A stretch of 64,000 bases of DNA from an uncultured Candidatus Saccharibacteria bacterium (GTDB taxonomy: Bacteria > Patescibacteriota > Minisyncoccia > Phycocordibacterales > CAIJYI01): assembly GCA_964410165.1 (NCBI GenBank), contig CAYPFT010000002.1:367-64366 (forward strand), given 5' to 3'. Shown here piece by piece: positions 4,331-48,443 of this stretch. The position numbers and the translations under genes were made by a program. Below the pieces are notes generated by a model. It was not told the DNA's origin. It ran no database searches and saw only the letters and a list, made by a program, of their open reading frames with translations. The first letter of the stretch is position 1; every line of letters starts with the position of its first letter.

Positions 4331-5097
4331 AATATATGCCAAAGCTAGATTATATAGAAATAAATAAATATATTGCCGAGGAGGTTATGAAACCATTTTA
4401 TGAAATCAGGCTTAAGAAACTGACCGAATTAAACCTAAACGCTATTCTGAAAAGAAAAAACCCGTACTTGTTTAAAGCAAAAAACATTGAGACAAGCGGA
4501 GAATTCATCAAGTATATTTTAGACGCGTATCTTTCTTCACAGGAAGAAACAATGTTTGGGAATCTTCTGGAACATTTAGCAATATTTGTTTGCGGTAAAG
4601 CTTTTAAGGGAAGAAAAGCGGAACAGGGTTTGTTGAAAAGCGTTGATTTGGAATTTGAAAGAAATAAAAAATATTATATTGTCGGAATAAAGTCTGGGAT
4701 TTATTGGGGCAACAAGGACCAGATTGACAGAATGAAGTCGAATTTTAAACAGGCAAAAAAAGTACTGAAAAAAAGCGGGGTTTCAAAAGAGATTATCGCC
4801 ATTAACGGTTGTATTTACGGAAAGGACAATAAACCGTTCAAAGCAGATGCCGACCAAGAGCAGAATTATTATAAAATATGCGGACAAGAATTTTGGGAAT
4901 TAATCTCTGGCGACAACGAGCTTTACAAGAATATAATTTTACCTTTGGACAAAGAAGCAAAAAAGAGAAGCGACCACTTCAAGGAGGCATATGCGGAAAA
5001 AACCAATGAAATGGTTAAGGAATTTTCAGATTCTTTCTTAACAAAAAAAGGCGCAATTGACTGGGAAAAAATGATTGATTTTGTATCTAAAAAATAA
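4315..5097 (+). CDS. Putative type II restriction endonuclease (cognate partner of the methyltransferase)
   Basis: Overlaps the methyltransferase stop by 16 bp with the same strand and the same AT-rich composition. No homology could be asserted from sequence alone. The call rests on position. Confidence 0.4.
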   Translation: MRFVLKYMPKLDYIEINKYIAEEVMKPFYEIRLKKLTELNLNAILKRKNPYLFKAKNIETSGEFIKYILDAYLSSQEETMFGNLLEHLAIFVCGKAFKGRKAEQGLLKSVDLEFERNKKYYIVGIKSGIYWGNKDQIDRMKSNFKQAKKVLKKSGVSKEIIAINGCIYGKDNKPFKADADQEQNYYKICGQEFWELISGDNELYKNIILPLDKEAKKRSDHFKEAYAEKTNEMVKEFSDSFLTKKGAIDWEKMIDFVSKK

Positions 5098-34846: not shown

Positions 34847-36532
34847 ATGGTAAAAATTATTCTCGAAAAAGCAATACGGAGCATTCTTGAGGCGCAAGGT
34901 ATTACTGTGCCGAGTTTTATCGTGGAGAAATCGCCCACTTTTGGCGACTATGCGACGAATGCGGCACTCGTTTCGGCAAAAGAACTCGGAAAGAATCCGC
35001 GTGAAGTGGCGGAGCTTTTGGTTGCGGAACTGGAGAAGTCTGATGATGTGAATGAAGCGATTTTGAAAATGGAAATCGCGGGTCCCGGTTTCATAAATTT
35101 TTTTGTAAAAGACGAAGTCATCCAGAAGCACATCAGTGAGATAGTTTCTCTCGGCGCAGGGTACGGGGAAAACAAAACACTTGAAAGGCAGAAAGTGATG
35201 GTGGAATACACCGACCCGAATCCGTTCAAGGAATTTCATATAGGGCACCTCATGTCGAATGCGGTGGGGGAATCACTCTCGCGCATCGTGGAAGCGCAGG
35301 GTGCGGAGGTGAAGCGGGCGTGCTATCAAGGAGATGTGGGAATGCATGTGGCGAAGACCGTTTTTGGAATCAAGAATCAAGAATCAGGAATCAGGAATGT
35401 TGCCGACCTCGGCCGGGCTTACGCTTTTGGGGCGCAGGATTACGATGAACACAAAATGGAAATTCAGGAGATCAATAAAAAGATTTATAACCGTTCTGAC
35501 GCAGAAATAAATGAGATATATGACGCGGGGCGGAAAATATCGCTGGATTATTTTGAAACTATTTATCAAAAGCTCGGGACGAAATTCGACTGCTATTTTT
35601 TTGAAAGCGCGACTGGCGTGTTTGGAAAGCAGATTGTCGAAGAAAACACCCCGGCAGTATTTGAGAAAAGCGACGGGGCGGTGATTTTCAAAGGGGAAGA
35701 CCATGGACTTCACACGCGCGTATTTATAAATTCCGAAGGCCTGCCGACGTATGAGGCGAAAGAGTTGGGGCTTGCGAAAATGAAATATGACACATACCCG
35801 TACGATGCGTCCATCGTGGTGACTGGCAATGAAGTGAATGATTACTTCCAAGTATTGCTTCGCGCGATGTACCTCATTTTTCCAGAGCTTGAAAAGCGGA
35901 CGAAGCACATTTCGCACGGCATGTTGCGGCTCCCGACCGGCAAGATGTCTTCGCGCACGGGCGATGTGATTACCGCCGAATCGCTCATTTCGGAAGTGAA
36001 AGACATGGCGCTTGAGAAAATGAAAGACCGCGAGCTTGAAGGCAAAGAACAAATCGCCGAACAAATAGCCGTCGGCGCGATTAAATACTCCATTCTGAAA
36101 CAATCCCCCGGCAAAGACATCATCTTTGATTTTGAAAAATCACTCTCGTTCGAAGGCGATTCCGGTGTGTATTTGCAGTACGCGTATGTCCGCACGCAAG
36201 CCATTCTCCGAAAATCCGAGTTTACACAGGGTAGTCCTCAGGAGAATCTCCTGAGGACTACCCTTGGGGAAACTGGGGGGCTAAGTGAGCTTGAAAAACT
36301 GCTCTTTGAAGGATTGCCGAATGTGGTGAAGCTCGCGCACCACGACCTTGCTCCGAATTATATTGCTACTTACCTCATCAATGTTTGCCGTGCGTTCAAT
36401 GCGTACTATGAGCAAAACCCGATACTCGGAAATGAACATACGCCCTATCGCCTCGCGCTTGTGGAAGCGGTTGGTATCGTTTTGAGGAATGGCTTGTATC
36501 TGCTCGGCATCGCCGCGCCGGAACGGATGTAG
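34847..36532 (+). CDS. argS: Arginine--tRNA ligase
   Basis: Class I HIGH motif (HIGHLMSN), ArgRS N-terminal domain and C-terminal DALR-type anticodon-binding region; 561 aa. Confidence 0.9.
   Translation: MVKIILEKAIRSILEAQGITVPSFIVEKSPTFGDYATNAALVSAKELGKNPREVAELLVAELEKSDDVNEAILKMEIAGPGFINFFVKDEVIQKHISEIVSLGAGYGENKTLERQKVMVEYTDPNPFKEFHIGHLMSNAVGESLSRIVEAQGAEVKRACYQGDVGMHVAKTVFGIKNQESGIRNVADLGRAYAFGAQDYDEHKMEIQEINKKIYNRSDAEINEIYDAGRKISLDYFETIYQKLGTKFDCYFFESATGVFGKQIVEENTPAVFEKSDGAVIFKGEDHGLHTRVFINSEGLPTYEAKELGLAKMKYDTYPYDASIVVTGNEVNDYFQVLLRAMYLIFPELEKRTKHISHGMLRLPTGKMSSRTGDVITAESLISEVKDMALEKMKDRELEGKEQIAEQIAVGAIKYSILKQSPGKDIIFDFEKSLSFEGDSGVYLQYAYVRTQAILRKSEFTQGSPQENLLRTTLGETGGLSELEKLLFEGLPNVVKLAHHDLAPNYIATYLINVCRAFNAYYEQNPILGNEHTPYRLALVEAVGIVLRNGLYLLGIAAPERM
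36229..36263. repeat. 35-bp perfect palindrome inserted in-frame inside argS (GGGTAGTCCTCAGGAG-AAT-CTCCTGAGGACTACCC)
   Basis: Reads as QGSPQENLLRTTLGE within an otherwise ordinary ArgRS. A half-site GGTAGTCCTCAGGGG recurs at 48459-48473 just downstream of ileS. Confidence 0.6.
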
Positions 36533-36712: not shown

Positions 36713-38245
36713 TTATTTCTTTCCCGATTTCGACGGACATTCGGCGATAAGTTCAACCTTGTCGTCTTCTTTGACCGCCTCAATCCGCACCGGACACTGC
36801 CAGAGCTGGAAGAGGTGTTTGAGCACTTCCGCCGCGCTTTCTTTGTGGAGCGGAACGCGATTGCGTTCCGTATGCCGCAAAGTAAGCGTGCGGTCGTTGC
36901 GCAAATCAACGTTCCATATCTGAATATCAGGTTCGATGGCGCCGATGTCGTACTGACCGGCAAGCGCTCGGCGTACATCGCGGTACCCGTCTTCGTTGTG
37001 GATTGCATTCACAATATAGTTTGCCGTGTCGAGTCCCGGGTAGTCTATTATATGCCACAGCCGCATGTCGCGCATGACTTTCGGAGAAAGATACTGTGAG
37101 ATAAAGCTCTCGTCTTTGAAGTTTTCCATAGTGAACTTCATTGTGGCAAGCCAGTCCGTACCCGCAATATCAGGGAACCACTTTTTGTCCTCTTCCGTCG
37201 GATTTTGACAGATGCGCGGAATGTCGCGAAACATATCGAAGCCGAGAGCGTAAGGATTTATTCCGGAATAATACGGCTTATCCCACGTCGGCTGAAGAAT
37301 CACATTTGTATGAGATACCAAAAATTCCAGCATAAAGCCGTCGTTCACGTATCCTTCGTCGTAGAGATCGTACATGAGCGTGTAATGCCAGAACGTCGCC
37401 CACCCTTCGTTCATGACTTTCGTCTGCCGTTGGGGATAGAAGTACTGCGCAATCTTGCGAACGATGCGCACAATCTCTCTTTGCCATGGTTCCAGAAACG
37501 GAGCGTTCTTTTCGATGAAATACAGGATATTTTCCTGCGGTTCGGTCGGGAAACGCTCCCGCCACTTTTTTTCCGCCTCCTTTTTGATCTTTGGCACCGT
37601 TTTGTCCCAGAGGTCGTTTACCTGCGACTGGAGATATTCCGCGCGTTCTTTCTGCCGCGCCCTTTCTTTTTCGAGCGAAATCGGCGCGGGGCGCTTATAG
37701 CGATCAACACCATAATTGCTTAATGCATTGCATGAGTCCAAAAAGAACTCCACTTCCTCTCGCCCATATTTCTCTTCGCACTCCGCGATATAGCGTTTTG
37801 CGAAGAGCATGTAATCCACGATAGCATCGGGGCTCGTCCACTGACGGAACAGATAATTTCCCTTAAAGAAGGAATTATGTCCGTAGCAGGCATGGGCGGT
37901 GACGAGTTCCTGCATCGCGGAAGAGTTCTCTTCCATAAGGTAGGCAATGCAAGGATTCGAGTTGATAACGAGCTCGTAGGCAAGACTCACATCGCCTCTC
38001 ATGTACGCGCGCCTCGTATTTTCCGCTTCTTTTCCGAGAGACCAGTGATAAAACGATACCGGCAGTCCGATGGATGAATACCGATCTATCATTTGCTCCG
38101 CGGTGATAATCTCAATCTGATTCGGAAACGTCTTGAGGCCGTACTTTTCGCATGCGATCCGCCCAATCACTTCGTTTGCTTTTTGAATATCCTCAATGGT
38201 CCATGCGGAAGATTCGGTAATTAACCGTGATATGTTGTGTGACAT
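36713..38245 (-). CDS. SpoVR/YcgB-family protein
   Basis: 510 aa. Last gene of a prkA-yeaH-spoVR arrangement, and full-length for the SpoVR family. Confidence 0.75.
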   Translation of the reverse strand: MSHNISRLITESSAWTIEDIQKANEVIGRIACEKYGLKTFPNQIEIITAEQMIDRYSSIGLPVSFYHWSLGKEAENTRRAYMRGDVSLAYELVINSNPCIAYLMEENSSAMQELVTAHACYGHNSFFKGNYLFRQWTSPDAIVDYMLFAKRYIAECEEKYGREEVEFFLDSCNALSNYGVDRYKRPAPISLEKERARQKERAEYLQSQVNDLWDKTVPKIKKEAEKKWRERFPTEPQENILYFIEKNAPFLEPWQREIVRIVRKIAQYFYPQRQTKVMNEGWATFWHYTLMYDLYDEGYVNDGFMLEFLVSHTNVILQPTWDKPYYSGINPYALGFDMFRDIPRICQNPTEEDKKWFPDIAGTDWLATMKFTMENFKDESFISQYLSPKVMRDMRLWHIIDYPGLDTANYIVNAIHNEDGYRDVRRALAGQYDIGAIEPDIQIWNVDLRNDRTLTLRHTERNRVPLHKESAAEVLKHLFQLWQCPVRIEAVKEDDKVELIAECPSKSGKK

Positions 38246-39534
38246 TACGCATTCTCCTTTTTTTTGAAGAGTTCATGAAACACCGGATAGATGTCCTTTT
38301 GTTCTCGGATGAATTTCATCGCGAATCGATCTTTAAATACGCTCTCTTCGGCAATCCGCAGATAGTTCGCCCAGAGTTCATCTTGCTTCTCTTTTTCAAT
38401 CTGAACGTAAGCGAAGTAGCGGAGCACAGAAAGAATTTCATTTACCAACATATCTTCGCAGATGTTGGAATCAAGCGACCAGTTCTCTCCATCGGAGGCT
38501 TGCGCGACATATCTGTTCCAAGAAGAGTCGCTGTATCTTTCGTCAATAATCTCTTTCATAAGGCGGAGCCCCGTGGAGACGACCGTACCGCCCGTTTCCG
38601 TGGACTCAAAAAATTCTTTTTCGACCACTTCTTCGGCGATAGTGTGATGCTTGATGAACACCACATCGGTCCGTTCGTAATTTCGTGTAAGGAACAGATA
38701 TAAAAGCAAGAAGAATCGTTTGGCAATATCCTTCCTGTTTTTGTCCATGGAGATCGAGACATCCATAATACAAAACATCACTGCTTGCGCGGTCGGCTCC
38801 GGCACTTTTGCAAATTGCCTGAAACGAAGGTCCGAAGTGTCTATGAACGGAATGCCGCGAAGTTTTTGTTTGAGCAGGGTAATTTCTTGCGCAACGGCAA
38901 TAACCCGCTCCCTTGCTTTTTCGTCCGGATCAGGCAATGCCAAAAGCAGAGCCATCTCCCCCTCAAGTTTGCAAAGGAGTTCCTCCTTATCTTTTTTCCC
39001 GAATACGATGCGCCTTGCAAGCGATTGACGAAAGGAGCGGACAAGGTCGAGGTTCGTCGGATTTCCCGCGGTGGTTATGCCCGCGCGTTTCCATTTGTAC
39101 TCGTCTATGCCTGAAAAGAGCTCGGTCTTTATCATATTCGGAAGTTCGCAGTCCTCAAAATAGATTTCCAAAAATTCTTTGCGGGTGAGGTGAAAAACAA
39201 AATCATCTTCGCCCTCGCCGTCCGGACTGCCTTTCTTTCCGCCCCCGCTTCCTCCTTTCGGGCGGGGGATTTTGTCTCCTGGAATAAAGCGGTCATTGCC
39301 GGGGTGCACATATTCCCGGTTGCCGCCTGTTCCGTGCCGGAATCGCGGTTCTTGAATGCCCTTTTTCGGGATGGTTATATCTTCTCCGTCTTTATGCGAA
39401 TCGGTAATGCTGCCGATCCCGGCTTTTTTCTGCACCGCTTCTTTTATCCACGGTTTCATTCGTTCAATGAATCTTCCACGATTGACGTGGCTGCCTCCTC
39501 CTTGACCTCTTCTGTCTACAATAACGTCGCTCAT
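38245..39534 (-). CDS. YeaH/YhbH-family (DUF444) protein
   Basis: N-terminal Gly/Arg-rich region (RRGQGGGSHVNRGRF ... GGSGGGKKGSPDGEGEDD) followed by a vWA-like C-terminal domain. Lies between prkA and spoVR. Confidence 0.75.
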   Translation of the reverse strand: MSDVIVDRRGQGGGSHVNRGRFIERMKPWIKEAVQKKAGIGSITDSHKDGEDITIPKKGIQEPRFRHGTGGNREYVHPGNDRFIPGDKIPRPKGGSGGGKKGSPDGEGEDDFVFHLTRKEFLEIYFEDCELPNMIKTELFSGIDEYKWKRAGITTAGNPTNLDLVRSFRQSLARRIVFGKKDKEELLCKLEGEMALLLALPDPDEKARERVIAVAQEITLLKQKLRGIPFIDTSDLRFRQFAKVPEPTAQAVMFCIMDVSISMDKNRKDIAKRFFLLLYLFLTRNYERTDVVFIKHHTIAEEVVEKEFFESTETGGTVVSTGLRLMKEIIDERYSDSSWNRYVAQASDGENWSLDSNICEDMLVNEILSVLRYFAYVQIEKEKQDELWANYLRIAEESVFKDRFAMKFIREQKDIYPVFHELFKKKENA

Positions 39535-39622
39535 GGCATTTCTCCCATATTACTCTGTCTTTGAAAAAAATAGGGGCGGCGTCGAAACTTCGAACCACCG
39601 CCCCTAAGCCTTTGACCCCTTC

Positions 39623-41548
39623 TTAGGAACTCTTTCTTACCCGCAGGTACCATTCCGAAAGCAGGCGCACCTGCTTGGGTGTGTAACCTTTCGCTCCCAT
39701 CCGATTCACGAAATCTTCGTGTTTTTTTTGGTCGTCTTTCGACGCTTTCGAGCTGAAAGAAATGACTGGCAAGAGCTCCTCGGTATTCGCGAACATCTTT
39801 TTCTCAATCACCGCCCGCAATTTTTCGTAGCTCGTCCATACCGGATTTTTCCCGCTGTTTTTCGATCTTGCACGAAGTACGAAGTTTACCACTTCGTTTC
39901 GGAAATCCTTCGGGTTTGAAATGCCCGCCGGTTTTTCAATCTTTTCAAGCTCCGTATTGAGCGCCGTTCGGTTGAAACTTTCTCCGGTGTCAGCGTCTCG
40001 GTATTCTTGATCTTGGATCCAGTAGTCCGCATACGTGACATAACGATCGAAAATGTTTTGCCCGTATTCCGAATACGATTCCAGATACGCCGTTTGGATT
40101 TCTTTCCCGATGAACTCGATATAGCGCGGAACGAGATACTCCTTGATGAAACGGAGATAGCGTTCCTGCATTTCCGACGGGAACTGTTCCTGAGCGATTT
40201 GCTGCTCCAATACATAAACCAGATGCACCGGATTCGCCGCCACTTCAGTGTGGTCGAAGTTGAACACTTTGGAGAGGATCTTGAACGCGAAGCGCGTCGA
40301 GATTCCTTCCATGCCCTCGTCCACGCCGGCGAAATCTTTATATTCCTGATAGGATTTGGCTTTCGGGTCGGTGTCTTTCAAGTTCTCGCCGTCATAGGTG
40401 CGCATCTTTGAATAGATGCTCGAATTCTGCGGTTCTTTGAGGCGGGACAAGACGACGAATTGCGCGAGCATTTGGAGCGTCCCCGGAGCGCACGGCGCTT
40501 CGGAGAGCGAGCTGTATCTGAGCAGTTTTTCGTAGATCTTCACTTCTTCCGAAACACGGAGACAATACGGAACTTTCACGACATACACGCGGTCGAGGAA
40601 CGCTTCGTTGTTCCGGTTTCCTTTGAAGGTTTTCCATTCCGATTCGTTCGAGTGGGCGAGAATAATGCCCTCGAACGGAATGGCGGAAAGCCCTTCCGTG
40701 CCTTTGTAGTTTTGTTCTTGGGACGCCGTCAGGAGCGGATGAAGCACTTTGATCGGCGCTTTGAACATTTCCACGAATTCCATGATGCCGCGGTTGCCGA
40801 GGCATAATCCTCCGGAGAAGCTGTACGCGTCCGGATCGTCCTGCGAATAGTGCTCGAGTTTTCTGATATCCACTTTGCCGACGAGAGAGGAAATGTCCTG
40901 GTTGTTCTCATCACCCGGCTCGGTTTTGGAAACGGCGCGCTGGTCGAGCTGCGAAGGGTGGACTTTTACGACGGTAAATTTTGTAATATCTCCCCCGTAT
41001 TCGTGAAGGCGTTTTACCGCCCACGGAGAGGGGATAATGCCGATATATCGGCGCGGAATGTTGTATTCTTGCTCAAGAATTTCCGCATCTTCCGCCGAAA
41101 AAAGTCCGAGAGGCGATTCGTTCACAGGGGATCCTTTGATCATATAGAACGGCTGTTTCTCCATGAGCGATTTGAGCTTTTCCGCAAGCGACGATTTGCC
41201 GCCGCCGACGGGACCCAAAAGGTAGAGGATCTGCTTCTTCTCTTCAAGTCCTTGCATTGCGTGGAGAAAGAACGCGACGATTTTTTGAATGGTTTCTTCC
41301 ATGCCGTAGAATTCCGCGAAAGAAGAATATACGTCAATGACCTTGTTTGCATGGATGCGCGAGAGGCGCGGGTCAAGCCGGGTATCAATGGCGTCCGGCG
41401 TCCCGATAGCAAGCAATTCACGCTCTTGCGGTGTGGCGTAAGCGCTCGGGTCATTTCGGCAAATTTCAAGATACTCTTCCAGAGAATATTCTTGCGCGCG
41501 GGTTTGGTCGTAACGCTCCGTGAGGCGGGTAAATAAACTGGTGTTCAT
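39623..41548 (-). CDS. prkA: PrkA/YeaG-family AAA+ serine protein kinase
   Basis: 641 aa with Walker A LLGPVGGGKSSL and PrkA-type N- and C-terminal domains. First gene of the three-gene operon. Confidence 0.85.
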   Translation of the reverse strand: MNTSLFTRLTERYDQTRAQEYSLEEYLEICRNDPSAYATPQERELLAIGTPDAIDTRLDPRLSRIHANKVIDVYSSFAEFYGMEETIQKIVAFFLHAMQGLEEKKQILYLLGPVGGGKSSLAEKLKSLMEKQPFYMIKGSPVNESPLGLFSAEDAEILEQEYNIPRRYIGIIPSPWAVKRLHEYGGDITKFTVVKVHPSQLDQRAVSKTEPGDENNQDISSLVGKVDIRKLEHYSQDDPDAYSFSGGLCLGNRGIMEFVEMFKAPIKVLHPLLTASQEQNYKGTEGLSAIPFEGIILAHSNESEWKTFKGNRNNEAFLDRVYVVKVPYCLRVSEEVKIYEKLLRYSSLSEAPCAPGTLQMLAQFVVLSRLKEPQNSSIYSKMRTYDGENLKDTDPKAKSYQEYKDFAGVDEGMEGISTRFAFKILSKVFNFDHTEVAANPVHLVYVLEQQIAQEQFPSEMQERYLRFIKEYLVPRYIEFIGKEIQTAYLESYSEYGQNIFDRYVTYADYWIQDQEYRDADTGESFNRTALNTELEKIEKPAGISNPKDFRNEVVNFVLRARSKNSGKNPVWTSYEKLRAVIEKKMFANTEELLPVISFSSKASKDDQKKHEDFVNRMGAKGYTPKQVRLLSEWYLRVRKSS

Positions 41549-41823
41549 GGCTGTTCTCCTGTGTGTGGCGGTTTTTGGTGAAGCAAAAAGATTGCTTCAA
41601 TAAATGAAGTTTTTGAGTTGTCGAAGAACAACCCTTTCCTGATTAAAAGTATAACAAAGTTCATCTCTGCCGTTGCTGTGCACAAGTTGTGCATAAGTAT
41701 TAAGAGCCATTTTGGGTATAGCACCGTCATCTCGTTGTCTTTTTCCGTCCGAGAAGGTACGCTATAAGCAGTACGGGCGCATTCGTCCATTGAAAAAGAT
41801 TTTACAAAATACAGGAGGGAGAC

Positions 41824-43158
41824 ATGGGTAAAATTATCGTTCCGGAAAACAAACTTATTCTGCTCGACCATACTCGCGCCGGTCCGATGGCGGAGAGATT
41901 TTACGAATTTGCCAAGACGCGCTTCGTCGGACAGCCGCGCGTTGTTCGGTGGCTCGCTCAAATGTCAGAATCTATATTTCAAGGTTTTTATCCCGCAAGG
42001 GGTCCGTTGGGAAGCGTACTTCTGGTCGGACCTTCCGGTGCGGGAAAAACGCTTGCCGCGGAACTTCTCGCGTGGTTTCTTTTCGGCGACCCGGAAGGAT
42101 TTTCCCGGATCGACGGACAGGAGATGGCGTTGCGAGAAAATATCGCGCGTGTGATCGGCGCATCGCCCGGGTATGTCGGGTATGATGATCCGCCGATGAT
42201 TACCCAAAAAAGCCTCGATGAACCCGCATATTTGTGCATACTCGAAAACGCGCTTAACAATGCCACTGAAGGAGTTCGTCGGGAGTACCACAATATTCAA
42301 GAAGAACGGCGCGGACTTTTGGCGCACATTACCGGGCTTGGAAAGACAAAATCCGACCAGGAAGAATTGGCGCTTGCTGTGCAAAAAATCAAATCACTCA
42401 ACCATCGGACGAAAGCGCTTGGCATTCCCGAATATGACCGAAGGAAATATACATATATTTCCATACTTCTGCTCGACGAGATTGAAAGAGCACATTCCGC
42501 TTTTCATAATCTGTTATATCGGATACTCGACGAAGGAAAACTGCCGATCGTGTCAAAGAACCAAAATATGGGAAGCGGTTTTATTGACTTCAGGAGAACC
42601 ATTATTATTGCAACCAGCAATCTTGGCGAAGAAGAACTGAAAAATCTTTTTAAGAGTTCAAGCGGCCGTTCACTCGGGTATAGTTTTATGAGGCAGACGT
42701 ATACCAGCGATGAGCTTGATCAAGCAACTTATCGGATTTGCAACAAAGCGATAGAAAGCTTTTTTCCGATGCCGCTCCTGAATCGTTTCGGAGATAAGAT
42801 TGCCGCGAGGATACATTCTCGGGAAGAACATCTTCAAGTTCTTGATATTGAGCTGAACAAGATTCGGGATTGGCTGTTTGATCCGGAGGGATGTAATTTT
42901 CCGATTGTAATTCGGGTTGAAGACTCGGTCAAAGCATATTTGGCGGACGAAATGTCGGAGAGCCTCGAAAAAGGAGTTCGTTTTTTGCAACAAAAGCTGA
43001 AGACACATCTCGTTGATAGAATTATATCACTCAAGGCGACAGGACAGGTTTGCGCGGGAGACATACTCATCGTGTCCACCGACCCGATTTCGAAAGAGTT
43101 TGTTTTTCACAAAGAACATAATCCCACCGCCGCGGAAAAGATTATAAAAACCAGCTGA
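41824..43158 (+). CDS. Orphan Hsp100/Clp D2-type AAA+ ATPase (single AAA module) with an ~80-aa insertion between Walker A and B
   Basis: FVGQPRVV...GSVLLVGPSGAGKT (Walker A), SPGYVGYDDPP (Clp hallmark), ILLLDEIERAH (Walker B), TSNLG (sensor 1), C-terminal small domain with GVRFLQQ. No N-domain and no D1. Confidence 0.7.
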   Translation: MGKIIVPENKLILLDHTRAGPMAERFYEFAKTRFVGQPRVVRWLAQMSESIFQGFYPARGPLGSVLLVGPSGAGKTLAAELLAWFLFGDPEGFSRIDGQEMALRENIARVIGASPGYVGYDDPPMITQKSLDEPAYLCILENALNNATEGVRREYHNIQEERRGLLAHITGLGKTKSDQEELALAVQKIKSLNHRTKALGIPEYDRRKYTYISILLLDEIERAHSAFHNLLYRILDEGKLPIVSKNQNMGSGFIDFRRTIIIATSNLGEEELKNLFKSSSGRSLGYSFMRQTYTSDELDQATYRICNKAIESFFPMPLLNRFGDKIAARIHSREEHLQVLDIELNKIRDWLFDPEGCNFPIVIRVEDSVKAYLADEMSESLEKGVRFLQQKLKTHLVDRIISLKATGQVCAGDILIVSTDPISKEFVFHKEHNPTAAEKIIKTS

Positions 43159-43173
43159 CGTTTTCTGTTCCGA

Positions 43174-43202
43174 CTCGCCCGTACCATATGGGCGAGTTTT
43201 TA
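43174..43202 (+). terminator. Rho-independent terminator between the two AAA+ paralogs
   Basis: CTCGCCC-GTACCATAT-GGGCGAG followed by TTTTTATTG. Confidence 0.5.
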
Positions 43203-43306
43203 TTGTCGCAAGGATTGTTTTTTTGCCCTATCAGGAGTACTGTTTAGGGCAGGAAAGACAAATTAGTCCATTGAAACAATTTTTCTTAAAAATACAGGAG
43301 GGGAGC

Positions 43307-44659
43307 ATGGATAACCGCAACACAAATTTTGTTCGTCTTGATCATCTGAAGCGAGGACAAACAGCGGAGGCGTTTATGGAATTTGCCGGCACAAAAGTAA
43401 TCGGACAATCGCACATTATTAAAACTATCGGTCAGACGATTGAACAAGAGCTTGCCGGATTCAGCAATCCCAAAAAGCCGATCGGCTCTTTCTTTATTGC
43501 CGGTCCGTCCGGCGTCGGCAAGACATCCATCATTAAAGCGCTTGCGGAGTTCTTATTTGAAGACGAAAAGGCAATGACCCGTCTTGAGGGACAGGAATTT
43601 TCGGAGCCGCATTCGGTAGCGAACCTGAAAGGATCGCCGGCGGGATATGTCGGATTCGATGAACCGCCGAGAATTACTCAAGAAGGACTCGATAAATACG
43701 GGTTCAATGCGATCCTTGATGATTTTTACTCGCGCTTGTTTCCGGGAGAGGAAGAATTCTTTCAAGAGAAAGAGGCAATGATCCGAACGCTTGTTTCGGA
43801 GATAAATTCATTGACTCAAAGGGATGCTCAAACGGCGAGCAAAAGAGAATCCTGCATGGAGAGCATAAAGGCGCTACAGAGAGAACTTGCCGCAAGAGGG
43901 TATCCTCTTTATGATATTACGGGTTCTCGTTCCAAGTATATCTCCGTTTTCCTTATAGATGAAGTTGAACGGGCGGACAAGGCGCTTTGGAATCTTCTCT
44001 ATACCCCTCTTGATGAAGCGTATCTCCCCATTAAGGGGTATAAAAGATGGAACGGAAGTGTCGTTGACAAAATACGATTTAACAGCACTTTTTTCTTTGC
44101 GACCTCAAATGTCGGCGATGATGTTATCCGCGAACTCTTGAACGTCCAAAGCGGCAAAAGTACGGGTTTTAAGTTTCATCATTCGTCCGTTTCAAAAAAT
44201 GTCGCGCAGGAAGTTTACTCGTCCTGCAAAAAGGAAGTGCGCAGGCATTTTCAGTCCAGTTTCATCGGCCGATTTGACCATTTTTTCGTTGCACAGCCAT
44301 TGTTTCGCCTTGAAATCCGGCAGGTTGTGGACTTGAAAATTTCAGAATTAAACAAGCGGTTGGCGAATAAATTGAATTTCCGGCTTTCTCTTGATGTTGA
44401 TGAAAAGGCGCGCGAGTTTATTGTTGATGAATCTGCCGATGATCCGACTATCGGCGCCCGGTTGGTGGAACAAAAGATTAAGAGGCGGTTGACGGATTCG
44501 CTTGTTTCGCTTACGGCAAGCAAACAAATAACAGACGGCGACCGTATTTTCGTTCGTCTGGAAACGCTTCTTGACCGTCCGGTTTTGACCTTTTACAGAG
44601 AAGAATATGCGGCAAAACCGCTTTTGGTACAAAAAGATTTAGCCGGGGGCAGACCATGA
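43307..44659 (+). CDS. Orphan Hsp100/Clp D2-type AAA+ ATPase, paralog 2, with ~100-aa insertion
   Basis: VIGQSHII...GSFFIAGPSGVGKTS, SPAGYVGFDEPP, VFLIDEVERAD, TSNVG. Same architecture as the upstream paralog. The ~40-bp leader/RBS is duplicated (TCCATTGAAA...AAATACAGGAGGGGAGCATGG). Confidence 0.7.
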   Translation: MDNRNTNFVRLDHLKRGQTAEAFMEFAGTKVIGQSHIIKTIGQTIEQELAGFSNPKKPIGSFFIAGPSGVGKTSIIKALAEFLFEDEKAMTRLEGQEFSEPHSVANLKGSPAGYVGFDEPPRITQEGLDKYGFNAILDDFYSRLFPGEEEFFQEKEAMIRTLVSEINSLTQRDAQTASKRESCMESIKALQRELAARGYPLYDITGSRSKYISVFLIDEVERADKALWNLLYTPLDEAYLPIKGYKRWNGSVVDKIRFNSTFFFATSNVGDDVIRELLNVQSGKSTGFKFHHSSVSKNVAQEVYSSCKKEVRRHFQSSFIGRFDHFFVAQPLFRLEIRQVVDLKISELNKRLANKLNFRLSLDVDEKAREFIVDESADDPTIGARLVEQKIKRRLTDSLVSLTASKQITDGDRIFVRLETLLDRPVLTFYREEYAAKPLLVQKDLAGGRP

Positions 44660-44666
44660 TTTTTCA

Positions 44667-44712
44667 CCCTCTCCTTAAACTTTAAGTTTCGGGAGAGGTT
44701 TTTTATTTTTTG
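44667..44712 (+). terminator. Rho-independent terminator
   Basis: CCCTCTCC-TTAAACTTTAAGTTTC-GGGAGAGG followed by TTTTTTATTTTTT. Confidence 0.55.
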
Positions 44713-44864
44713 CAAACAGCCTTAAAAATGGTATATTTTCCCTATGTTAGAAGAACTGAGGGCTCACCCACGAATAAAATCCCCGTCTCGCCTCCATATT
44801 TCCGCAATCTTTTATTTTTTCTCTCCGCCAGCTGGCGGACACAAATCTCTCATCGTAGCTCACT

Positions 44865-47800
44865 ATGCCTCAAAATTTTCTCAATCAAAAAAATAAAATC
44901 TTACAAAAATCTGGAACCGAATCCGGGGAAGTTATTCGTGGGCGAACCCTTGAAAAATCTAAAATCGCCGAAAGCGAAGAAAAAACCCTCGCTTTTTGGC
45001 GCGAGAATAACATTTTCCAAAAAACGCTTGAGGCGACGCGCGAGGGCGAGCCGTTTGTCTTTTACGATGGGCCGCCTTTTGCGACTGGGCTTCCGCACTA
45101 TGGGCATCTTTTGCAGGGGACAATCAAAGACACCGTACCGCGATACCAGACGATGCGCGGGCGATATGTCCGTCGCGTGTGGGGGTGGGACTGCCATGGA
45201 CTGCCGATTGAAAATCTTATTGAAGGAGAGCTCGGGCTGAAGCACAAAAAAGACATCGAAAACATCGGCATCGCGAATTTCAACGAGGCCGCGCGAAAAA
45301 GCGTGCTTCGCTACGATGAGGATTGGAAGAAAATCGTTCCGCGGATGGGGCGATGGATAGACATGGAGGCGAGCTACAAAACGATGGATTGGCAATACAC
45401 GGAATCTATTTGGTGGGCGTTCAAAACGCTCTACGACAAAGGACTTATTTATGAGGGATACAAGCCGATGCATATCTGCCCGCGATGCGAAACGACGCTG
45501 GCGAACTCTGAAGTAACGCTCAATTATCAGGATGTGAAAGATATTTCCGTAACGGCGAAGTTTGAGCTCGCAGATGAGCCGGGAACGTTCGTGCTTGCGT
45601 GGACGACCACGCCGTGGACGCTGCCGGGGAATGTCGCGCTTGCAATCGGTGAAGTTATTGAATACGTAAGAGTAGGAATTTGGAATCAGGAATTAGGAAT
45701 TAGGGAAACGTATATTGTGGCGAAAGAGCGGGTGGAAACGGTATTCGCAGGCAAGGAGTATGAGATACTTGGATTAGTGCATAATCCGGATTTGATAGGC
45801 AAAAAATACAAACCTGTTTTTGACTATTACACTGGCGACGAGAAGCTTCCAAACCGCGAGAACGGCTGGAAAATAGTTGTGGCGGAATTCGTGACGACGG
45901 ATACCGGTACGGGCGTTGTCCACATTGCTCCGGCGTTCGGAGAGGAAGACATGGCGCTCGGCATCGTACAAAATTTGCCGTTCATTCAGCATGTCGGCAT
46001 GGGCGGGGTTTTCAAACCCGAAGTAACAGACTTTGCGGGAATGCCGGTGAAGACGAAAGGCGACACGCAATCGGCGGATGTGGCGGTCATAAAATATCTC
46101 GCGGCACACGGCACGCTGTTTGCAAAAGAAAAAATAGAGCACTCCTACCCGATGTGCTGGCGGTGCGACACGCCGCTTTTGAATTACGCCGCGAGCTCGT
46201 GGTTTGTGAAAGTTACCGCGCTTAAAGAAAAGATGCTTTCAGAAAATGAAAACATTTCGTGGGTGCCGGAGAACATGAAGCACGGTCGTTTCGGAAAATG
46301 GCTCGAAGGCGCCCGCGACTGGGCCATCTCCCGCTCGCGATATTGGGGCGCGCCGATTCCGGTCTGGAAATGCGACAAATGTGAAAAACTTGATGTTATT
46401 GGTTCTGTGTCGGATTTGCGCAAAAACATCAAGCCCAAAAATCAGTATTTTGTGATGCGGCACGGGGAGGCGGAACATAATGCGACCAACACTGTGAGTT
46501 CGAAGCCGGAAAATCCAACACACCTTACAGAAAAGGGAAAAGAGGAAGTTAGGGTGGCGACGGAAGGACTAAAAGATAAAAAAATTGACTTCATTTTCGC
46601 GTCCGATTTCGTGCGCACAAAAGAAACGGCGGAAATGGTTGCGGGAATGCTCGGAATTCCAAAAGATAAAATCGTGTACGATGAACGTTTGCGTGAAATA
46701 AATGCCGGTGATTTCGACGGAAGACCGATTTCAGAATACCGCGCTTATTTTCCCAGACTCCTTGAAAGGTTTACGAAGCCTGCACCGAACGGCGAGAATG
46801 TCGTTGGTGTCAAAGTGCGGGCAATGGATTTTCTTTCGGAAACCGACGCGAGAGAAGCGGGAAAAAATATTTTGCTCGTTACCCATGAATACGTGGCATG
46901 GATGCTTGCCACCGGAGTGAAAGGGCTCTCAAAAGAAGATTCTTGCCGCGAGAAAGAGGGGAAAGATGATTTTATCGTAACCGGAGGAGTGCTTTCTATT
47001 TCTTACGCGCCGTTCCCGCACAACGCCGATTACGAGCTCGACCTGCACCGACCCTACATAGACGACATCGTGCTTCCGTGCAAATGCGGCGGCGATATGA
47101 AGCGCGTGCCGGAAGTTTTTGACTGCTGGTTTGAATCCGGGTCAATGCCGTACGCGCAGTTTCATTACCCGTTTGAAAACGAACAAGAATTTAAGCGCAA
47201 TTTTCCCGCGGATTTTATCGCCGAAGCGGTAGATCAGACGCGCGGATGGTTTTACAACATGCACGCGCTTTCCGTCGGGCTTTTTGGAGAACGGGCATTT
47301 AAGAACGTTATTACGACCGGACTTATTCTTGCGGAAGACGGACAGAAAATGTCCAAGAAGCTCAAGAATTATCCCGACCCGATGGATGTGGTAGAAAAAT
47401 ACGGCGCGGACGCACTCCGGTATTACCTGCTTTCTTCCCCGGTGGTTGTCGGAGAAGAGCTTCGTTTTTCTGAAAAAGGCGTGGACGAGGTGTACAAAAA
47501 GATTGTGATACGCCTGCAGAATGTCGCGGCGTTTTATGAACTGTATCGCGACGTATCAGGGAACAGTATCAGTATCAGGGAGATGACGAATGTTCTTGAT
47601 GAGTGGATTTTGGCTCGGCTCGCAGAGTTAGTTGCTGAAGTGGAAGCGGGGATGGAGGGTTACGAGCTCGACCGCGCGGCTCGGCCGTTTATGCTTTTCA
47701 TTGATGACCTTTCCACATGGTATTTGCGCCGTTCTCGCGACCGAATGAAAGGGAAAGAGGGAAAAGCCGGCGAAGAAGAAGATACGAATAATGCCCGCGC

Positions 47801-48443
47801 AACACTCCGCCACGTGCTTTTGGAGCTCTCAAAAACCCTCGCGCCATTCATGCCGTTTCTTGCGGAAGATGTGTACAAACGCGCGGACGGGGAGAGGGAG
47901 AGTGTACATTTGGAACAAATCACAAATCCCAAATCCCAAATTCCAAACGCAGACGTACTTGTCCAAATGCAGGAAGCAAGGAAGGTTGTAGCAATGGGAC
48001 TTGAAGCACGCGCAAAAGCTGGGATTAAAGTGCGTCAACCTCTTGAAACGATCAAAACAACCATTACATTTTCCGGCGGCGGTATCATTATTTCTGATTT
48101 ATTCGGTACAATAAAAGCTGAACTTAATGTCAAGAATGTTTTGTTGGGACAAGATAAAGATGAGTTGGATACCGTTATAACCCCAGAACTCAAAGAAGAG
48201 GGAATGGTACGCGAATTCATCCGCCACGTGCAAGAGCTTCGTAAAAAGGAAGATTTAAGCCCCGCCGATAAAGATCGCATACTTCTTGTTTCCACCGACG
48301 AAGAGGGAGAAACATTCCTTAAAAAATTTGAAGCGGAGATAAAAAGAGCAACGCTTTTCGCCGCCGTGGAGTATCGGGAACCAAATGAGGGAGAGCAGAC
48401 GAAAGTAGAACATATCTTATTCTCTCTCGCGATAAAAAAGTAG
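44865..48443 (+). CDS. ileS: Isoleucine--tRNA ligase carrying an internal histidine-phosphatase (PGAM-like) domain
   Basis: HIGH (HYGHLL) and KMSKS (KMSKKL) motifs, editing domain and zinc knuckles. Residues ~527-720 (nt ~46440-47030) contain RHGEAEHN, ASDFVRTKETAE, LVTHEYV: the RHG...H signature of the histidine phosphatase superfamily. The insert sits between the CDKC knuckle and DLHRPYIDD. 1192 aa. Confidence 0.85.
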   Translation: MPQNFLNQKNKILQKSGTESGEVIRGRTLEKSKIAESEEKTLAFWRENNIFQKTLEATREGEPFVFYDGPPFATGLPHYGHLLQGTIKDTVPRYQTMRGRYVRRVWGWDCHGLPIENLIEGELGLKHKKDIENIGIANFNEAARKSVLRYDEDWKKIVPRMGRWIDMEASYKTMDWQYTESIWWAFKTLYDKGLIYEGYKPMHICPRCETTLANSEVTLNYQDVKDISVTAKFELADEPGTFVLAWTTTPWTLPGNVALAIGEVIEYVRVGIWNQELGIRETYIVAKERVETVFAGKEYEILGLVHNPDLIGKKYKPVFDYYTGDEKLPNRENGWKIVVAEFVTTDTGTGVVHIAPAFGEEDMALGIVQNLPFIQHVGMGGVFKPEVTDFAGMPVKTKGDTQSADVAVIKYLAAHGTLFAKEKIEHSYPMCWRCDTPLLNYAASSWFVKVTALKEKMLSENENISWVPENMKHGRFGKWLEGARDWAISRSRYWGAPIPVWKCDKCEKLDVIGSVSDLRKNIKPKNQYFVMRHGEAEHNATNTVSSKPENPTHLTEKGKEEVRVATEGLKDKKIDFIFASDFVRTKETAEMVAGMLGIPKDKIVYDERLREINAGDFDGRPISEYRAYFPRLLERFTKPAPNGENVVGVKVRAMDFLSETDAREAGKNILLVTHEYVAWMLATGVKGLSKEDSCREKEGKDDFIVTGGVLSISYAPFPHNADYELDLHRPYIDDIVLPCKCGGDMKRVPEVFDCWFESGSMPYAQFHYPFENEQEFKRNFPADFIAEAVDQTRGWFYNMHALSVGLFGERAFKNVITTGLILAEDGQKMSKKLKNYPDPMDVVEKYGADALRYYLLSSPVVVGEELRFSEKGVDEVYKKIVIRLQNVAAFYELYRDVSGNSISIREMTNVLDEWILARLAELVAEVEAGMEGYELDRAARPFMLFIDDLSTWYLRRSRDRMKGKEGKAGEEEDTNNARATLRHVLLELSKTLAPFMPFLAEDVYKRADGERESVHLEQITNPKSQIPNADVLVQMQEARKVVAMGLEARAKAGIKVRQPLETIKTTITFSGGGIIISDLFGTIKAELNVKNVLLGQDKDELDTVITPELKEEGMVREFIRHVQELRKKEDLSPADKDRILLVSTDEEGETFLKKFEAEIKRATLFAAVEYREPNEGEQTKVEHILFSLAIKK

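Follow-up and report, generated by a model that had tools for sequence, protein, structure and literature searches.

We analysed a 64-kb stretch of contig CAYPFT010000002.1 from an uncultured Candidatus Saccharibacteria bacterium (the window in what follows, 64,000 nucleotides), in which the isoleucyl-tRNA synthetase gene, ileS, encodes a protein of 1192 amino acids (aa) with a histidine phosphatase embedded in its catalytic body. The open reading frame (ORF) had been picked out in a first-pass annotation made from the letters alone, and it is present as read. Judged from sequence and predicted structure, it encodes the host's canonical type-2 isoleucyl-tRNA synthetase (IleRS), with the HIGH and KMSKS signatures and the editing and anticodon-binding domains intact. 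The conservation pattern puts the catalytic residues of the phosphatase under strong purifying selection, and the protein is almost certainly bifunctional. Gene neighbourhoods in relatives mark the embedded domain as a captured operon neighbour that stems from an argS-phosphatase-ileS gene order, and genome searches find the architecture to be widespread in Patescibacteria, in hundreds of species.

The synthetase body is recognizable over its whole length. The complete protein scored 881.3 bits against the NCBIfam ileS model TIGR00392 (cut-off 621.4), the insertion notwithstanding, and Pfam domains were found in the order tRNA-synt_1 in two stretches with His_Phos_1 between them, Anticodon_1 (residues 912-1062), and DUF5915 (residues 1101-1192). 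The last two families mark the C-terminus as type 2, as does the similarity of the predicted IleRS body to solved type-2 IleRSs, including the yeast IleRS-tRNA complex (TMt 0.79-0.87). AlphaFold2 modelling of the full protein with a 118-sequence alignment gave a pLDDT of 90.4 and a pTM of 0.85; the insert was modelled at pLDDT 91-98. Following the IleRS domain names of PMC7191050, residues 1-521 comprise the first Rossmann half, the connective peptide (CP) core, the CP1 editing domain, CP2, and the first strand and helix of CP3, and residues 719-1192 comprise the CP3 beta-hairpin, the anticodon-binding domain, and the type-2 C-terminal domain. The protein aligns across the editing domain of Priestia megaterium IleRS2 (8C8V) and with the isolated editing-domain structures 1WK8 and 1UE0. 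No second IleRS and no paralogous phosphatase were found in the window, and the models for the mupirocin-resistance IleRSs MupA and MupB (NF000257 and NF000258) were matched at 720.6 and 725.9 bits, below their cut-off of 1900. As the motifs are intact, relatives carry the gene at an argS...ileS...recO position, and the window holds no second ileS, we infer that the 1192-aa protein charges tRNA-Ile with isoleucine. Residues 1-27 were modelled at pLDDT <50 and overhang the N-terminus of most homologues (window 44865-44945); translation may actually begin slightly downstream, at an internal GTG or TTG.

The insert, a complete histidine-phosphatase domain, occupies residues 522-718, within a few residues of the first estimate of its bounds (about 520-725, about 190 aa). 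In the alignment to 8C8V, residue 521 of the query pairs with chain residue 477 and residue 719 with chain residue 480, so that about 197 aa stand in place of a 2-residue connection. The distance from DWAISR to DCWFESGSM is 278 residues, compared to 80-90 in insert-less Patescibacteria IleRSs, and the surplus in total length, put at about 150-250 aa in the first-pass annotation, was measured as 160-235 aa relative to insert-less relatives (955-968 aa) and P. megaterium IleRS2 (1032 aa). Mapped onto the structure, the insertion site lies at the tip of the zinc-binding CP3, close to the synthetic active site, after the CP3 helix and ahead of DLHRPYID, with linkers of at most about 10 aa, and both halves of the CP3 zinc knuckle are retained around it (CDKC 503-506 and CKC 739-741). 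CP3 is a small connective peptide that links CP2 to the second Rossmann half; it binds zinc in Thermus thermophilus IleRS, and its topology varies among solved IleRSs (PMC7191050). The base of CP3 flanks the IleRS active site (PMC12077802). The IleRS motifs on either side of the insert are 250-277 aa apart (median 255) in 58 species, and the short linkers and narrow length spread suggest that the phosphatase is rigidly mounted on CP3. The composition of the insert resembles that of the host gene, as had been claimed: GC content was 0.470 compared to 0.492 in the rest of the gene, and synonymous-codon usage correlated with r = 0.80. The net charge of the insert is about zero (30 K+R and 32 D+E).

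The phosphatase identity of the insert is supported by profile, alignment, and predicted fold. His_Phos_1 (PF00300) matched residues 529-691 with 107.2 bits when the whole protein was searched and 111.6 bits when the insert was excised (cut-off 21.7). All four motifs that had been noticed by eye are present, namely RHGEAEHN (532-539), ASDFVRTKETAE (579-590), LREINAGDFDG (609-619), and LLVTHEYV (670-677), and residues R532/H533/G534, R584, E611, and H674 match the catalytic residues of PhoE column by column (1EBB/1H2E). Among 119 homologues of 56-100% identity, R532, H533, N539, R584, and E611 were conserved at a frequency of 1.00 and H674 at 0.99. The mean top-residue frequency of the insert (0.62) was similar to that of the anticodon-binding domain (0.63), pointing to a similar evolutionary rate. 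Since the catalytic residues are 99-100% conserved while the remaining domain drifts, the phosphatase chemistry appears to have been retained. The insert modelled alone with AlphaFold2 reached a pLDDT of 93.7, and a Foldseek search with this model returned the PGAM-type fold at TM 0.77-0.83 to PspA, PhoE, GpgP Rv2419c, CobC, and a riboflavin-pathway phosphatase. An absent profile match, non-alignable catalytic residues, and a chimera or frameshift were each looked for, and none was found.

We could not place the insert in any characterized family. The dPGM models were matched below their cut-offs by the window protein (pgm_1 TIGR01258, 28.1 bits vs 81.7; dPGM_arch NF038349, 62.5 vs 225), and the residue after the acid/base Glu is Ile in the insert; in dPGMs this position is Arg. 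Neither were the cut-offs reached for CobC (TIGR03162, 77.8 vs 162.9), PspA (NF045917, 50.3 vs 350), and SixA (TIGR00249, 39.2 vs 74.5), nor the curated cut-off for GpmB, and the free-standing and fused relatives described below likewise stayed under those for CobC, PspA, and SixA. A true phosphoglycerate mutase, CobC, PspA, or SixA was thus ruled out, every score lying below the curated cut-off, and because no characterized family was reached, the insert is assigned to an uncharacterized subfamily.

The fusion is not confined to the window. An identical protein is already in NCBI (P0121), and the best 120 full-length homologues, which came from NCBI, JGI, ENA, and Logan assemblies and ranged from 56 to 100% identity and from 1077 to 1231 aa, all carry PF00133, PF00300, and the IleRS C-terminal domains. 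Counting one genome per species and searching with two short insert peptide patterns, at least 310 species genomes encode a relative. We kept 80 species-representative loci for detailed comparison; their labels include Paceibacterota, Parcubacteria, Yonath-, Lloyd-, Nomura-, Vogel-, Campbell-, Kaiser-, Taylor-, and Berkelbacteria, Minisyncoccia, and others. In 78 of these loci the IleRS N-terminal part, the phosphatase, and the IleRS C-terminal part are colinear in a single frame, and the insert in the window is in frame, as first read. The fused gene is split into four consecutive overlapping ORFs in L001 (3235-6725), and a frame change was seen in L048 and L080. These disruptions are probably assembly errors, although gene decay may account for them in some lineages. 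The likewise earlier remark that intein termini are missing also holds: no Pfam intein or Hint domain was found in the ORF, and the insert starts with ...KPKNQYF and ends with ...SYAPFPHN-A, not with the Cys/Ser...HN-Cys/Ser/Thr of an intein. The His of the C-terminal "PHN" is an IleRS residue, aligned to H480 of 8C8V.

Variants of the embedded domain were also seen. Three IleRS fragments (P0023, P0038, and P0064) contain a phosphatase without about 35 cap residues (profile positions about 91-126); the cap region usually sets substrate specificity in the histidine phosphatase superfamily. A 1277-aa IleRS of Candidatus Berkelbacteria (L078, 969-4799) carries a complete phosphatase domain at 618-776 and, ahead of it, a partial extra copy of the phosphatase N-terminus (547-605).

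The origin of the insert became apparent from its free-standing relatives. All locus scans used narrow alignments, and the samples are biased to close subfamilies. An exhaustive HMMER search with the insert alone retrieved 1002 cluster representatives at E < 1e-10; among the best 150, 90 were IleRS fusions or fusion fragments and 60 showed the phosphatase alone. Many of the 60 are complete proteins of about 190 aa that match from residue 1 with about 33-45% identity. One protein that had come up as the nearest stand-alone relative (P0241) was ruled out, being a fragment of an IleRS fusion called as four ORFs. Four free-standing genes were inspected. Three of them directly precede an insert-less ileS (955-968 aa) and have argS upstream and recO downstream; the fourth starts 6 nt after argS, and intergenic gaps of 2-18 nt separate the genes at these loci. 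Three free-standing sequences from argS-phosphatase-ileS loci served as seeds for a metagenome scan, which is therefore a biased sample; it yielded 69 loci. Classification succeeded for 67 of them, with the phosphatase free-standing in 56 and embedded in 11. Where enough upstream sequence was available, argS was found within 2.5 kb upstream of the free-standing gene in 34 of 34 loci, and within 200 nt in 28 of them; where enough downstream sequence was available, an insert-less ileS followed within less than 600 nt on the same strand in 35 of 43. This argS-phosphatase-ileS packing, a feature of related Patescibacteria, is kept across sequences that are only 37-57% identical. At the fused loci, argS lies directly upstream of ileS in 46 of 80, and 79 of 80 have no stand-alone copy within 4 kb. 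The complementary presence of the two forms and their common argS/ileS context indicate that embedded and free phosphatase swap at one conserved chromosomal position. In one free-standing locus (L092, 3915-5004), a NUDIX hydrolase and a 205-aa protein without a Pfam match stand between argS and the phosphatase; the NUDIX hydrolase is another nucleotide-phosphate-handling enzyme in an operon with the phosphatase.

Members of the same subfamily were also found at other sites of IleRS and on other enzymes. One is fused to the C-terminus of ArgRS (P0337; TIGR00456, 405 bits, cut-off 262) on two contigs of about 70 kb, and another to the C-terminus of the t6A enzyme TsaC (P0327; TIGR00057, 147 bits, cut-off 123) on one 3.7-kb contig. 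A ValRS-like protein (P0281) holds four phosphatase copies, one after SPQWF and three in tandem at the site equivalent to CP3; its best NCBIfam match is ValRS with 411 bits, below the full-length cut-off of 704 because the protein is truncated. Further IleRS sites, represented by P0338 and P0396, are a position following the second zinc knuckle, the segment between SMPYA...HYPF and ADFIAEG, and the junction ahead of the anticodon-binding domain. In GCA_028277205.1 (JANQGT010000004.1; L083, 4654-8982), the standard code breaks up every gene of the locus. When UGA is translated as Gly, a single frame of 1442 codons opens (about 1,420 aa from the first Met), and this lineage evidently uses code 25. 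Its IleRS has a phosphatase at 531-709 in CP3 and a second one at 896-1079, before the anticodon-binding domain, and is devoid of the CP3 zinc-knuckle cysteines. In-frame TAA codons occur in phosphatase copies of the IleRS P0396 (two assemblies; L165, about 4972-4974, and L166, about 4831-4833) and of the ValRS-like P0281 (L086, 3849-3851). After each TAA the domain sequence resumes in the same frame (e.g., ...GNVKN*HHLTEKGRAQ...); possible readings of these codons are a sequencing error common to the assemblies, a gene that has been split or has only lately become a pseudogene, and recoding or read-through. In a neighbour-joining tree of the domain copies, the CP3, free, ArgRS, and TsaC forms intermingle; the tree is star-like and unsupported, and serves to show this intermingling, not to count insertion events. 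Both the path from operon gene to insert and the parallel fusions are, to our reading of the searched material, newly reported here.

Further proteins in this set deserve mention as single observations. P0338 (L164, 5001-9260) is a complete 1419-aa IleRS with phosphatase copies at two non-CP3 sites, and its neighbours are purA, a DAHP synthase, a phosphoribosyltransferase, and a large SLH-domain protein. As this context is atypical for Patescibacteria, the occurrence of a phosphatase in IleRS may extend to another phylum. The CP1 region of P0328, a 1066-aa IleRS fragment, contains a segment resembling a REP/IS200-type Y1 transposase (about 326-472); further on, the fragment has a phosphatase in CP3 (680-854), and where P0338 and P0396 have a phosphatase it bears a GNAT domain (935-1063). 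Either this IleRS has acquired an unusual number of extra domains, or the fragment is chimeric. A protein combining the phosphatase with a weak AlkB-like domain (P0382) was dropped as evidence for a tRNA link, since the AlkB match is below the cut-off and the phosphatase domain groups with an outgroup in the tree.

What the phosphatase does in this setting can be narrowed to a few readings. The one we favour, with confidence that is evenly balanced, is that it works together with the enzymes it is joined to, above all class I synthetases, which form adenylates and handle tRNA, rather than being carried along without a link to them. The subfamily is repeatedly joined to class I synthetases, both by fusion (Rosetta-stone evidence) and by gene neighbourhood, which argues for such cooperation, and the argument is strengthened by the repeated internal insertions at different sites, the multi-copy synthetases, and the uniform spacing at CP3. 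The first-pass annotation had offered either a link to tRNA charging or a moonlighting fusion. Because the domain is a captured operon neighbour and recurs on ArgRS, ValRS, TsaC, and at other IleRS sites, the first option is favoured over pure moonlighting, without being proven. In histidine phosphatases, a His attacks the terminal phosphate to form a phospho-histidine, and an acid/base Glu protonates the leaving group. By analogy, H533 would attack the terminal phosphate and pass through a phospho-histidine intermediate, the arginines and N539 would hold the phosphate, and E611 would serve as the acid/base that protonates the leaving group, the substrate being a ligand on its way into or out of the synthetase active-site region.

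The top candidate for this ligand would be a 2'/3'-phosphorylated tRNA acceptor end that is healed prior to charging, and the next a nucleotide by-product. Acceptor-end healing in the strict sense is on present evidence rather unlikely. In that case, the insert would strip a 2'/3'-phosphate left by a nuclease from the CCA end, or the terminal phosphate of a pyrophosphate installed by a toxin, immediately ahead of the charging of the 2'-OH by class I synthetases. If true, a tRNA-repair or anti-toxin step would reside inside IleRS and, through the fusions and the operon partnership, would also serve ArgRS and ValRS, and healing would be a third catalytic function of synthetases beside synthesis and editing.

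Several points weigh against cooperation with the synthetase. The closest relatives in sequence and structure (PhoE, PspA, GpgP, CobC, and the riboflavin-pathway phosphatase) act on small molecules, we know of no PGAM-family enzyme that acts on RNA ends, and the insert offers no obvious RNA-binding surface, as its net charge is about zero. A covalent tether is evidently not needed by the free-standing form. Operons of streamlined genomes mix unrelated housekeeping genes, with recO in the same block, and a C-terminal fusion to ArgRS would arise as soon as a stop codon is lost. Fusions to ArgRS, TsaC, and ValRS are found on one or two contigs each, an in-frame TAA occurs in two of the variant genes, and the seeding bias of the metagenome scan has to be borne in mind as well.

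Some of these points would be accounted for if the insert were an independent metabolic phosphatase, that is, a broad small-molecule phosphomonoesterase of the PhoE/PspA/CobC type without a link to aminoacylation. We regard this as possible but tentative. The argS-ileS operon would have been a seat for co-expression, from which, in one large clade, the gene would have moved into a surface loop of IleRS that tolerates insertions; such uptake would save a gene start and ensure constitutive expression in a streamlined genome. Such an origin fits the nearest solved structures and sequences, all of which are small-molecule phosphatases, the neutral charge of the insert, and the presence of the unrelated recO in the operon. 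The domain moreover looks generic, as it reaches no curated functional family cut-off, and CP3 is plastic and peripheral, with a topology that differs among solved IleRSs (PMC7191050). What a metabolic phosphatase leaves unexplained is the insertion at four or more IleRS sites, the multi-copy IleRS and ValRS, and the fusions to ArgRS and TsaC, as well as the tight argS-phosphatase-ileS packing at 37-57% identity and the short linkers and uniform spacing.

It is improbable that the domain is a protein phosphatase guarding the synthetase, which would dephosphorylate the synthetase or a neighbouring translation factor in the manner of SixA, Sts-1, or PGAM5 and, for example, lift the inhibition imposed when HipA-like or other kinases phosphorylate such a target. 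Protein phosphatases do occur in the PGAM superfamily, and kinase toxins act on class I synthetases (HipA on GltX and HipT on TrpS). A prkA kinase operon even lies between argS and ileS in the window; however, this block is window-specific and outside the conserved neighbourhood. The SixA model was matched weakly (39 bits, below the cut-off of 74.5), while the best structural matches are small-molecule enzymes and not SixA or Sts-1, and IleRS, ArgRS, and ValRS are not known to be phosphorylated in these organisms.

Quite improbable, too, is a non-catalytic module, for which hydrolysis would be irrelevant and which would act as a structural brace, as a ligand sensor (e.g., for a phosphorylated metabolite that tunes charging), or as a docking surface. 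The conservation of the five catalytic residues and N539 at 99-100%, while the rest drifts, is a signature of retained chemistry, and a phosphate sensor would keep the pocket but not necessarily the acid/base E611. Many appended synthetase domains are nevertheless non-catalytic, and the high pTM and short linkers of the model suggest tight packing on the IleRS body. Finally, an artefact or selfish element (a chimera, a gene-joining frameshift, an intein, or a recent mobile insertion) can be dismissed almost completely, as the few fragmented or frameshifted contigs (L001, L048, and L080) stand against an identical NCBI protein, an architecture shared by homologues of 56-81% identity from many independent assemblies, 78 of 80 loci in one frame, no Hint domain or intein junctions, and host-like codon usage.

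Compared to known synthetases, the protein is closest to P. megaterium IleRS2 (8C8U/8C8V) and T. thermophilus IleRS (1ILE), with which it shares the same body (phmmer E = 7e-232), the HIGH and KMSKS motifs, CP1 editing, a zinc-binding CP3, and the anticodon-binding and type-2 C-terminal domains. It differs from the solved IleRSs in having a phosphatase of 197 aa where they have a 2-residue connection, and no phosphatase-bearing IleRS was found among the solved or published IleRSs searched. The insert itself resembles the branch-1 PGAM-type phosphatases PhoE/YhfR (1H2E, 1EBB), PspA (4IJ5), GpgP Rv2419c (4QIH), and CobC (6E4B), not only in fold (TM 0.77-0.83) but also in its size of about 190-210 aa and in the R-H-G...R...E...H set, which is in register. 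Those enzymes are free-standing and have known small-molecule substrates, whereas the domain in the window is embedded and scores below their curated cut-offs.

Precedents for such a combination are partial. An IleRS with an extra enzyme domain is represented by NF040702 (ileS_w_GNAT, N-acetyltransferase-containing IleRS), in which the guest is a GNAT and not a His_Phos_1 domain; the window protein scored 319.6 bits against its cut-off of 1999 and has no GNAT domain. A CobC-like His_Phos_1 domain joined covalently to a nucleic-acid enzyme is found in the RNase H/acid phosphatase family NF005567, represented by M. tuberculosis Rv2228c and M. smegmatis RnhC, and what this pairing is for is not yet clear. 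NF005567 is an end-to-end RNase H fusion and not an internal insertion into a synthetase (window score 67 vs 326). In the E. coli CCA-adding enzyme, the HD domain acts as a 2',3'-cyclic phosphodiesterase/phosphatase in tRNA 3'-end repair. It offers a loose analogy, as a phosphatase on an enzyme that needs a clean tRNA 3' end; the HD fold is unrelated, however, the host enzyme is different, and the analogy leans on the favoured, unproven substrate.

In the first-pass annotation no precedent was known for a phosphatase inside an aminoacyl-tRNA synthetase. This stands for the literature searched, as full-text searches returned no description of a phosphatase in any synthetase, and the words "phosphatase" and "Patescibacteria" do not occur in the main text of a 2026 survey of 96,219 IleRS architectures. 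It does not stand for the databases, which hold the fusion from hundreds of species, Pfam records, and the GNAT-IleRS family NF040702; the sequences and automatic Pfam hits for both domains are already deposited, and the architecture is widespread in one superphylum. NCBI names the proteins "class I tRNA ligase family protein" or, for fragments, "histidine phosphatase family protein". Through these generic pipeline names, the insertion degrades the annotation of the essential ileS across Patescibacteria.

Aminoacyl-tRNA synthetases are well studied, and their known built-in catalytic extras are essentially editing domains. An intact phosphatase in the sole IleRS of much of a superphylum would therefore bring new chemistry to synthetases, and the evolutionary trail would lead from a free gene between argS and ileS to a domain embedded in IleRS, with parallel fusions to ArgRS, ValRS, and TsaC. 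Should the substrate be a tRNA end or a synthetase-linked nucleotide, this would amount to a new translation quality-control or repair step; should it be an unrelated metabolite, the gene would still be a clear case of streamlined genomes merging operon neighbours into essential enzymes.

The features of the window are summarized in Table 1.

Table 1. Features of ileS and its surroundings, in positions of the window.
Feature	Position	Strand	Basis or remark
argS (ArgRS), ancestral upstream operon partner of ileS	34847..36532	+	tblastn, 52% identity to L089 ArgRS
prkA / DUF444 (yeaH-like) / spoVR triad	36713-41548	-	
Two paralogous ClpB-D2-like AAA+ ATPase genes	41824-43158, 43223-44659	+	
Putative sigma-70-like promoter: TTGCAA, 16 nt, TATATT, upstream TG (extended -10)	44709..44737	+	128 nt ahead of ileS start
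ileS, type-2 isoleucyl-tRNA synthetase with embedded phosphatase	44865..48443	+	1192-aa ORF, TIGR00392, Pfam, AlphaFold2
IleRS N-terminal part, residues 1-521	44865..46427	+	Alignment to 8C8V residues 11-477
HYGH (class I "HIGH" signature, residues 78-81)	45096..45107	+	H78, G80, and H81 invariant, 118 homologues
CDKC, first CP3 zinc-knuckle half (C503, C506)	46371..46382	+	Both cysteines >=90% conserved (118 homologues)
Inserted histidine-phosphatase (PGAM-type, His_Phos_1) domain, residues 522-718	46428..47018	+	Pfam, alignment, AlphaFold2, Foldseek
Catalytic-residue span	46458..46886	+	Conservation in 119 homologues, register with PhoE
R532-H533-G534 (catalytic RHG)	46458-46466	+	
R584	46614-46616	+	
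E611	46695-46697	+	
H674	46884-46886	+	
IleRS C-terminal part, residues 719-1192	47019..48440	+	Alignment to 8C8V residues 480-879, 938-1019
CKC, second CP3 zinc-knuckle half (residues 739-741)	47079-47087	+	Conserved in family
DCWFESGS	47121-47144	+	Motif position
KMSKK (class I "KMSKS", residues 828-832)	47346-47360	+	Invariant or nearly so, 118 homologues

The promoter is a consensus match only; the scan returned 2 overlapping matches where 0.5 were expected. Just upstream of it, at about 44667-44711, a GC-rich inverted repeat (CCCTCTCC...GGGAGAGG) is followed by a T-run; the terminator scanner made no call for this hairpin, its 16-nt loop being too long. No T-box or other Rfam leader was matched in the region upstream of ileS (44660-44864). 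A block of about 8 kb (36713-44659) parts argS from ileS in the window and breaks their otherwise conserved adjacency. The PrkA-YeaH-SpoVR stress module it contains is unexpected in a genome of the Patescibacteria type, and the block looks like an insertion.

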